DNA of 51,690 nt, taken from NCBI GenBank assembly GCA_040876265.1, contig JBBDPN010000001.1, positions 1 to 51,690 on the forward strand, given 5' to 3'. Under the pieces are notes generated by a model. That model saw nothing but the letters and a program-made list of their open reading frames with translations, had not been told where the DNA came from and made no database searches. How positions within the stretch are numbered: position 1 is the stretch's first letter; the number at the start of each line of letters is the position of its first letter. Position numbers and translations under genes: made by a program. The DNA is from Candidatus Woykebacteria bacterium (GTDB lineage Bacteria; Patescibacteriota; Microgenomatia; Woykebacterales; RBG-16-39-9b). Below, one piece after another: positions 5,761-6,593 of this stretch.

Positions 5761-5823
5761 TTTAGTATGTTGTATGGCGTATACAGTATACAGTATACAC
5801 AATACACAAAACTCGATACTAAA
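5761..5823. repeat. 7-nt-period imperfect palindrome abutting a start codon
   Basis: GTATACA x3 (5779-5799) inside TTTAGTAT...ATACTAAA arms. Confidence 0.8.
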
Positions 5824-6593
5824 TGAAACGTCCTGCCCAATTTTTATTAACACTTATTCTGCTACCAGTTTTTTTGGTAGGACTTTCCACGAACATATTT
5901 GCACAAGAGTTACGTAGTGGCCAAATTGCTTCTAACATCCAGGTGGATGATCCAGACGCAACAGCGGCAGACATTCTCTCAAAAACTATTGATGGCGTGG
6001 TGCGCTCAGAAACTAGCTACGACAAGAATTTATTCGCAGTGGCCGTCGAAAATCCAAGCATCGCTCTCAACAAACAAACCGAAAATACATTACCGGTGGT
6101 TTCCTACGGCGAAGTTTTGGTTAAAGTTTCAGATACCAACGGGGCCGTAAAAAGCGGTGATTTCATTACCTCAAGTCCCACCCCTGGGGTGGGACAGAAA
6201 GCCACGGACTCTGGTTATATATTGGGGAAGGCTTTGGAGGATCAGCAGGGCGCGGAAGATGTTATCAGTGTTTTCGTAAATATCCAGTATAGAAGCGTCG
6301 AAGGTAAACTCTCTTTCGGAAAATTCTTTACAATTATCGGTACAAATATTGCTAGAACGGAAAACCTCCCTGAGGTTCTCCGTTATATATTTGCACTTAT
6401 TGTTGGCGGAGGAGCCTTTCTGCTAGGATTTATTACTTTTGGTAGATCCTTGCGCAGTGGTGTGGAGGCAATCGGCAGAAATCCAATGGCAAGGACAAGT
6501 ATCCAGTTGGCGCTTGTATTGAATTTAACCGGCGTAACTATTTTGACAGCAGCCGGAATAGGTCTGGCCTTACTTATTATATTTTACTTTTGA
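5823..6593 (+). CDS. Exported-domain membrane protein with a C-terminal ATP synthase subunit-c-like hairpin lacking the carboxylate
   Basis: Signal-peptide-like N-terminus; beta-rich segment [43 protein letters not shown]; two C-terminal hydrophobic helices joined by [16 protein letters not shown]; first gene upstream of the b-like gene. Confidence 0.75.

Follow-up and report, generated by a model that had tools for sequence, protein, structure and literature searches.

What can an F1 ATPase do when the protein encoded in the place of its subunit c has no acidic residue with which to bind an ion? The question is raised by a 51,690-nt stretch of DNA from a Candidatus Woykebacteria bacterium (contig JBBDPN010000001.1, here called the window), a member of the Candidate Phyla Radiation (CPR). 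At 5823-6593 on the forward strand the window carries a gene for a 256-aa fusion protein, here called the c-like protein, in which a signal peptide is followed by an exported beta-domain and, at the C-terminus, by a helical hairpin resembling subunit c of F-type ATP synthases. The open reading frame call is supported by 204 homologues. On balance, the c-like gene probably heads the operon for a rotary machine that is powered by ATP hydrolysis, moves no ions and carries an exported crown on its rotor ring.

The c-like protein and its relation to subunit c

The AlphaFold2 model of the c-like protein has a mean pLDDT (predicted local distance difference test) of 84. The signal peptide (aa 1-27; 5823-5903, + strand) has a likely signal peptidase I site after NIFA (NIFA/QE), judged by eye. 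A hydrophobic helix spans aa 3-22 in the model, and a hydrophobic h-region followed by an (A/S)-Q/E motif is kept across the alignment of the family. The exported beta-domain (aa 35-157; 5925-6293, +; pLDDT >90) includes a conserved GDFITSSxxPGVGQKA motif and a GYILGKALE stretch. A short helix (aa 165-177) and a conserved PENxPEVLRY motif follow (6315-6386, +), placed at the outer membrane surface from the alignment and the model; within the motif P183 is invariant, and R187 and Y188 are nearly so. The hairpin proper (helix 1, cytoplasmic loop, helix 2; aa 189-256; 6387-6590, +) is thus preceded by 188 aa. Helices of this region run from 179 to 219 and from 221 to 254 in the model, and the C-terminus comes right after helix 2. 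The loop R219-N220-P221 (6477-6485, +) is the counterpart of the RQP/RNP loop of c subunits and is invariant in 120/120 homologues. T239 (6537-6539, +) takes the position of the essential Glu/Asp of subunit c, being aligned to the Glu of the chloroplast and Spirulina proteins; it stands 18 residues after the loop proline P221 (position +18) and 11 residues past IQ. The next gene, encoding a b-like stalk protein, begins after a gap of 181 nt.

Similarity of the hairpin to subunit c is seen by profile, by profile-profile alignment and by fold. A profile of 36 family members run against all PDB sequences gave six matches, five of them F-type c subunits (E 0.03-0.24), and in this alignment GRNP pairs with ARQP and Glu61 of subunit c with the T239 column. 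For hhalign the reference was a set of nine canonical c subunits, itself checked against PDB sequences (best matches E ~1e-31, full length); the C-terminal profile of the family matched it with P 2.9e-5 and 6.1e-5 (probability 65-74%, 42 columns). Because membrane helices can match on composition alone, a composition null was built from 200 column shuffles of the c alignment and from the reversed alignment. The family score of 29.7 lies about 9 standard deviations above the shuffled null (10.9 +/- 2.1, maximum 19.1; none of the 200 shuffles reached the family score), and the reversed alignment scored 11.7. Using Foldseek, the hairpin aligns with 2wie, 6fkf, 4cbj and 6oqr at TM-scores of 0.75-0.88, a root-mean-square deviation of 1.2-2 A and 24-30% identity, the 30% being with chloroplast c over 74-75 residues.

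In c subunits the N-terminus lies outside the cell and the loop in the cytoplasm, and the R-(Q/N)-P loop contacts gamma and epsilon. The topology of the c-like protein fits that of subunit c, since the signal peptide and the exported N-domain put the N-terminus outside and the loop in the cytoplasm. Judged from these matches, the hairpin and F-type subunit c are most likely homologous, though diverged; the hairpin stays below every curated family threshold, and a chance resemblance is very unlikely. An earlier note on this DNA had read the frame at 5823-6593 as a signal peptide, an exported domain and a C-terminal subunit-c-like hairpin directly before a b-like gene, and this agrees with the sequence. 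Its likening of the hairpin to subunit c is borne out by the profile, profile-profile and Foldseek matches, though PF00137 itself gives none. Its placing of T239 at the ion site, with no Asp or Glu in helix 2, is also upheld, and helix 1 likewise has neither residue.

The same note had likened the N-terminal domain to the Peptidase_G2 or intramolecular chaperone (IMC) domains of tail-fibre-like proteins, a resemblance sustained by a fold match to 3gqh and by PF11962 matches in 8/36 members (best 2.3e-5). Foldseek of aa 35-157 against the PDB found the phi29 gp8.5 head-fibre base, the phi29 gp12 C-terminal fragment 3gqh (3gqh_A, E 2.7e-3, probability 1.00) and capsid cement proteins. Against BFVD, preneck-appendage and tail proteins were found (best 3.8e-11; preneck appendage proteins at 1.4e-9 and 2.3e-9). 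XM1_gp53 matches 16/36 members; the window protein itself has no PF11962 match, and its best Pfam scores are to XM1_gp53 (0.029) and Phage_cement_2 (0.14). The fold of aa 35-157 is therefore shared with phage IMC/beta-tulip and cement domains (3gqh PF11962, phi29 gp8.5, cement PF09956, PF23982). Phage domains of this kind end a fibre or decorate a capsid, whereas the c-like beta-domain stands between a signal peptide and a membrane hairpin. The PF11962 domain, moreover, is C-terminal on the fibre and removed by autocleavage. That layout is not the one seen here: the beta-domain follows the signal peptide directly, with no passenger preceding it, and autocleavage is therefore unlikely to play a role.

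Conservation of the operon and of the missing ion site

The family is large. An exhaustive HMMER search of 1.84 billion representatives gave 598 clusters at 50% identity, 214 with E <= 1e-10. Members are almost all 250-290 aa long with the hairpin at the extreme C-terminus, short matches being mostly fragments of reading frames that start inside the beta-domain, and at NCBI all are named 'hypothetical protein'. The architecture recurs in the first homologue set of 204 as well as in the 598 clusters, which argues that it is not due to chance.

Gene neighbourhoods were covered in the window and in about +/-10 kb per locus (~10-20 kb per genome), giving 1.15 Mb around 108 operons. All 19 GTDB genome loci that extend to beta, and all 80 metagenome loci as far as their contigs run, share one arrangement: c-like, b-like, delta, alpha, gamma, beta, epsilon. 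Wherever a locus extends to the b-like gene (99/99), the c-like gene lies directly before it. Linkage of the homologues to atp genes therefore holds in every locus (19 genome and 80 metagenome). Labels of the genome loci include Woykebacteria, Daviesbacteria, Nealsonbacteria, Parcubacteria and Paceibacterota; some labels of metagenome-assembled genomes look unreliable.

Throughout this family the carboxylate is missing. No acidic residue occurs in either membrane helix of the 120 closest homologues (0/120), none at the ion site in 21 divergent genome loci down to 35% identity (0/21), and none at +18 in 149 diverse representatives with a recognisable loop (0/149) or in the 94 hairpins of the 1.15 Mb (0/94). 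Residues in the +18 column are aliphatic or small: I/L/T/V/F/S/A/M in the 120 homologues, I/V/L/A/G/F/T/S/M/C in the 149 representatives and I/L/V/A/S/G/F/T in the 94 locus hairpins. Loss of the carboxylate is thus a conserved trait. Invariant among the 120 are R219-N220-P221, A223, G202 and P183, and the GRNPLA loop is present in 134/149 representatives. N234 and T242, invariant in the main clade only, were considered as a substitute ion site and rejected, since the divergent clade has S/I and A/G/M at these two positions. D/E at +13 (the N234 position) or E at +9 is seen in a handful of members; L047 (~902), P0135, P0188 and P0207 carry D or E at +13, where the residue would lie ~1.4 helical turns cytoplasmic of the canonical ion site.

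Downstream of the c-like gene, all on the + strand, the remainder of the operon encodes stator and F1 subunits. The b-like stator stalk (6775-7476, 233 aa) is assigned from its position and from its architecture, in which a single membrane helix at the N-terminus leads into a long coiled coil; NCBIfam subunit-B models match it faintly (E 0.5-1), and no conserved polar or charged residue is present in the membrane helix of b-like proteins. Delta/OSCP (oligomycin sensitivity-conferring protein; 7499-7990, 163 aa) matches PF00213 at 4e-10 in its C-terminal half only. F1 alpha (8024-9493, 489 aa) has the Walker A motif GDKKTGKT and the arginine finger SVSRVG. F1 gamma (9447-10376; PF00231, 1.1e-29) likely starts at M14, at 9486, the NCBIfam alignment beginning at residue 14. 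F1 beta (10367-11734, 455 aa; IDNIYR) reaches 490 bits with TIGR01039, above the 463-bit cutoff, and likely starts at 10373 in an ATGA overlap with the gamma stop. Epsilon (11739-12011, 90 aa; PF02823, and aligned against E. coli epsilon) consists of the beta-sandwich domain only. Walker A, the catalytic Glu and the arginine finger are all present in the F1 of the window, which looks catalytically competent from its sequence.

Epsilon ends right past the beta-sandwich in every locus (median 90 aa). Family-wide it has no C-terminal two-helix domain, the part that holds back ATP hydrolysis in ordinary enzymes. The alignment of alpha starts at residue 9-10 against profile positions 22-26, so that the N-terminal helix, which normally binds delta, appears ~16-20 residues short. 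With the OSCP match confined to the C-terminal half of delta, the attachment of the stalk may be altered.

Subunit a, the usual partner of c, was not found in the 51.7-kb window or within ~10 kb in the 108 loci, and no atpB was present upstream of the c-like gene at the loci inspected. The stator motif RLxxNxxxG[EH] does not occur in multi-pass reading frames of the 1.15 Mb. When all six frames of the window and of every locus were searched by regular expression for an overlooked canonical c, only the c-like gene came up, with no second R[QN]P hairpin. Candidates for subunit a were set aside as follows. A 238-aa gene abutting the c-like gene upstream in L001 and L002 encodes a soluble Zn-ribbon protein. 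Nearby multi-pass proteins in the loci are histidine kinases, tetratricopeptide repeat (TPR) membrane proteins and FtsW/RodA. Multi-pass proteins of the window resemble ComEC, an M50-type protease, a TPR protein with 13 transmembrane helices and MreD, as judged by N-terminal sequence and hydropathy only.

Upstream, and always on the opposite strand, a large divergent partner gene (573 to >2600 aa) is present in at least 41 of the 80 loci with >=700 bp of upstream sequence, and in 39/41 its motif is no more than 1.9 kb from the c-like start. Such a partner starts with a conserved N-domain in the cytoplasm, continues through a membrane helix and has a huge part outside the cell. In the window the partner (complement, <1-5287) is at least 1762 aa long and runs off the end; its N-domain reads LIAFDEVIDRAKGRGVTFGKGNPFNRLRYYTKIGLLPHAKRK, and its membrane helix, KPAHYLLLALLAATTALPALY, was read by eye, hydropathy scans not having flagged it. 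Partners can be grouped generally into two types. Type A, found in the window, L001, L003, L005, L006, L008-L012, L014, L015, L030-L033, L038-L044 and L066, has a very conserved and only faintly MerR-like N-domain (LISIDEVIxRAKxLGVDFGKGDPRNRLRYYxKIGLLPHAKRK). Type B (L071-L105) has a solid MerR-type helix-turn-helix as its N-domain (PF00376, 1.4e-11). A MerR identity of the N-domain in the window is unproven: it has no Pfam match, hhalign against the type B MerR domain gave P 0.038, and a fold search with a single-sequence model (pLDDT 67) found nothing. The L011 partner is clearly tail-fibre-like, with an endosialidase-chaperone domain.

The beta-domain itself recurs in giant proteins. At 30-40% identity it lies near the C-terminus of giant CPR proteins, in L024 and L025 and also in L052, L053, L055 and L083, where the giant proteins are encoded directly beside the c-like gene (E 1e-15 to 1e-17). 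One further protein, P0257 (L026 1424-3016, 530 aa), on a single 3.3-kb contig, fuses a helix-turn-helix-like N-domain and membrane helix to a beta-domain and hairpin, and may be a Rosetta stone that ties the c-like protein to the anchor module of the partner. The contig of P0257 and those of P0184 and P0143, which likewise have an odd architecture, are short and gave little information on their surroundings. The divergent partner may act as a regulator tethered to the membrane, may work together with the machine, or may do both.

A proposed rotary ATPase and its alternatives

The c-like hairpins would form a ring. ATP hydrolysis would turn gamma, epsilon and this ring against a stator of b-like protein and delta, with no ions moved, while the RNP loop would keep docking gamma and epsilon on the ring. 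Thus turned, the rotor would display a crown of beta-domains at the cell surface. More speculatively, the crown might engage, fold, anchor or move the adjacent giant tail-fibre-like proteins, a step by which cytoplasmic ATP energy would be brought to an extracellular task. Rotor and stator parts are both strongly conserved, which suggests that rotor-stator mechanics are still the point; an enzyme confined to hydrolysis fits the loss of the epsilon brake; and folding, anchoring or movement of fibres is suggested by the linkage to giant fibre-like proteins, some of which carry the same beta-domain. The earlier note had proposed that F1 drives a surface rotor or assembly platform and makes no ATP. 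The structural premises of that proposal stand, and the function is a well-motivated suggestion.

Several points weigh against a rotary machine of this kind. The window protein and all 36 members examined by HMMER have no PF00137 (ATP-synt_C) match at E<=1, and the NCBIfam subunit-C model NF005608 gives the window protein 13.7 bits against a cutoff of 128. The hhalign match spans the loop and helix 2, not helix 1, and its 65-74% is below the usual 90-95%. With no subunit a, there is no evident holder of the b-like helix against the rotor. Genome-wide absence of a and c would be an extrapolation from the ~10-20 kb covered per genome, and copies elsewhere are possible. The association of crown and fibres is one of gene linkage and of a beta-domain present in some of the fibres, a physical link being conjectural, and a fibre partner is missing from about half of the loci.

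Some of these points could also reflect a hairpin that serves as a membrane anchor or scaffold and forms no freely rotating ring, F1 being tethered as an ATPase without trans-membrane torque. Variants of this alternative would be a regulated ATPase, an assembly chaperone for the exported domain, or a decaying relic. The missing subunit a, the lack of a conserved charged residue in the b-like helix that could serve as stator, and the failure of hhalign to detect helix 1 similarity all fit an anchor, as do the alpha subunit's apparent N-terminal shortfall of ~16-20 residues from the canonical profile and the half-length OSCP match of delta. Phage relatives of the beta-domain are trimeric and would fit a ring poorly. 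An anchor would hardly explain, however, why a rotor set (gamma, the epsilon N-domain, the RNP loop) and a stator set (b-like, delta) are both kept under strong conservation across 598 diverged clusters, and the RNP loop, being invariant, suggests that gamma and epsilon still dock there. The relic is excluded, since members remain conserved down to 35% identity. An anchor is considered rather unlikely.

Canonical subunits a and c might instead be encoded elsewhere in these genomes. The complex would then remain an ATP synthase or pump coupled to ions, with the c-like fusion either as an accessory subunit or in the minority within a mixed ring. In Campylobacterota atpB and atpE are scattered in the genome, and for the present family the inspection extended over the window and about +/-10 kb around each locus. 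Some CPR genomes do carry canonical a, b and c (PMC8672522; PMC8080830), mixed rings exist (Acetobacterium woodii c1, PDB 4bem chain J), and mycoplasmas keep a canonical Type 1 enzyme beside atypical ones (PMC12994834). Against this, no canonical c or a-type stator motif was found in the 1.15 Mb around the 108 operons, the c-like gene fills the atpE slot in every locus, and epsilon is without its regulatory domain family-wide. The beta subunit scores as ordinary atpD, so that F1 is not an obvious extra paralogue. In the closed circular 878-kb genome of the WWE3 bacterium RAAC2, the authors saw no recognisable a, b or c, and only an odd 'putative c' common to OP11/WWE3 operons (PMC3812714). That protein probably belongs to the same family as the c-like protein, and the weight of RAAC2 for a machine without ion transport hangs on this probable membership. 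Canonical a and c genes elsewhere form the main rival reading, yet one considered unlikely, and slightly more so than an anchor.

Convergence, with an unrelated two-helix surface protein merely lying beside F1 genes, would be in keeping with the ease with which helical hairpins are matched by structure and with the silence of Pfam ATP-synt_C, but is highly improbable given 30% identity to chloroplast c over 74-75 residues, an invariant signature R-N-P loop, a profile-profile score ~9 standard deviations over the compositional null and atpE-slot synteny of 100% over 99 loci.

Known systems and other contents of the locus

Of the known systems, F-type subunit c itself (PF00137; spinach chloroplast c14, 6fkf and 6tqj; Spirulina c15, 2wie) shares several features with the c-like family: two helices that form a hairpin at the end of the protein, an R-(Q/N)-P loop on the cytoplasmic side, an N-terminus outside the cell and a gene directly upstream of atpF (b-like in this family). 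The c-like family differs in having no ion-site Glu/Asp, ~190 extra N-terminal residues and no atpB partner. Hairpins without an ion-binding carboxylate also sit in the rotor rings of A. woodii (c1, 4bem chain J) and among the duplicated proteolipids of V/A-type enzymes. Those rings retain carboxylate-bearing hairpins and subunit a, and ions are still translocated; in the c-like family no carboxylate-bearing copy was seen at the loci inspected.

A functional parallel may be found in the F1-like X0 ATPases of mycoplasmas, namely Type 3, linked to the MIB-MIP system (MMCAP2_0575-0581), and Type 2, the gliding motor of M. mobile (MMOB1610-1670), which power the antibody-cleaving MIB-MIP system and gliding legs, respectively (PMC12994834; PMC11864180). 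Common to these and the c-like operon are an F1-derived ATPase, a membrane sector that is not a canonical Fo and a genetic link to surface proteins. The mycoplasma enzymes have been shown to power a surface function. Their clusters encode a protein with 12 transmembrane helices and a small cytoplasmic protein, with no b or delta (PMC12994834); the c-like operon, by contrast, has no gene for either of the former and keeps b-like and delta. MMCAP2_0577/MMOB1650, with their C-terminal pairs of transmembrane helices, match the c-like protein in described architecture. Alpha and beta of the window score higher against atpA and atpD than against the MSC_0618/0619 or MMOB1660/1670 models, which fall below their own cutoffs.

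In the literature, Kantor et al. 2013 gave one paragraph to the 'putative c' of WWE3/OP11 ATPase operons, a transmembrane protein in the c position that is not significantly homologous to any known subunit (PMC3812714). The paragraph does not mention a missing carboxylate, an exported domain, the absence of a as a family trait or partner proteins (PMC3812714). No later analysis of the odd CPR c subunit was found, nor anything relevant on an F1-like ATPase or c-ring in Patescibacteria. As far as found, what is apparently new comprises the homology to c, the loss of the carboxylate throughout the family, an exported domain of phage type, the truncation of epsilon, the family's size and the fibre partners. 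The machine would add a variant to the F-type rotary ATPases and might represent a functional class not seen before.

CPR bacteria (Patescibacteria) are without a respiratory chain. An F-type ATP synthase is nevertheless attributed to almost all of them; reviews up to 2024-2026 find this surprising, and assume that the enzyme makes ATP or acts as a reverse ion pump (PMC11665869; PMC13293708; PMC8080830). A broader proposition, put forward tentatively and with less confidence than the rotary machine itself, is that in a large part of CPR (Microgenomates-, Parcubacteria- and WWE3-type) the F-type 'ATP synthase' neither makes ATP nor pumps ions and is a rotary ATPase that passes torque via a carboxylate-free c-ring to an external phage-fibre-type crown, which would fold, anchor or move giant tail-fibre-like proteins used in host contact. 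If a large share of these enzymes does have neither ion site nor subunit a, the puzzle of the CPR ATP synthase would dissolve for those lineages, and metabolic reconstructions would err for them wherever 'complex V' is counted from alpha and beta. The machine would be a second independent case, after mycoplasma Types 2 and 3, of F1 reused as a cell-surface motor, and the first rotary ATPase to deliver cytoplasmic ATP energy via a c-ring as mechanical work on the outer face of the membrane. With a recognisable c-ring and stator kept, it would be possible to trace how an ATP synthase evolved into a machine of the cell surface.

The c-like gene is bracketed by two copies of a 34-nt direct repeat on the + strand, at 5425-5458 upstream and at 6642-6675 in the gap before the b-like gene. 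The copies are 82% identical; they agree exactly over a core of 17 nt, AGATTTCAGATGTCAGA, behind which TCAGA-like heptads follow. The repeat occurs nowhere else in the window (chance expectation 0.18 matches) and was not found in related loci; it may be an operator. The ~470 nt between the divergent partner and c-like genes (5356-5822) are AT-rich with many short direct and inverted repeats; TGTCACGGGAAA is present twice, and a 35-nt imperfect palindrome at 5757-5827 overlaps the c-like start. A search of Rfam found no known RNA in this repeat-rich region.

At the other end of the operon, leuS lies downstream of epsilon (12123-14678). It adjoins the operon in many lineages, downstream in L003, L005 and L006 and upstream in L018-L022, an adjacency that may reflect nothing more than inherited synteny. 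In 11 of ~43 loci where epsilon is seen, but not in the window, the operon is accompanied by genes for a receiver-only response regulator and a histidine kinase with eight transmembrane helices. The pair lies between alpha and gamma in L009 (9576-11361), L011 (9264-11050) and L013 (4346-6135), and just past epsilon in L001, L007, L014, L015, L039, L041 and L043.

Elsewhere in the window are comEA/comEC-like competence genes (15296-17114), a type IV pilin-like gene with a GFTLIELLIV motif (21500-21940) and a cluster of four tRNAs for Trp, Thr, Tyr and Thr (35899-36648), together typical of CPR content. Between 42000 and 48000 the GC content is 0.48-0.53 against ~0.43 elsewhere, and several reading frames start with GTG or TTG; this may be a foreign or atypical segment.

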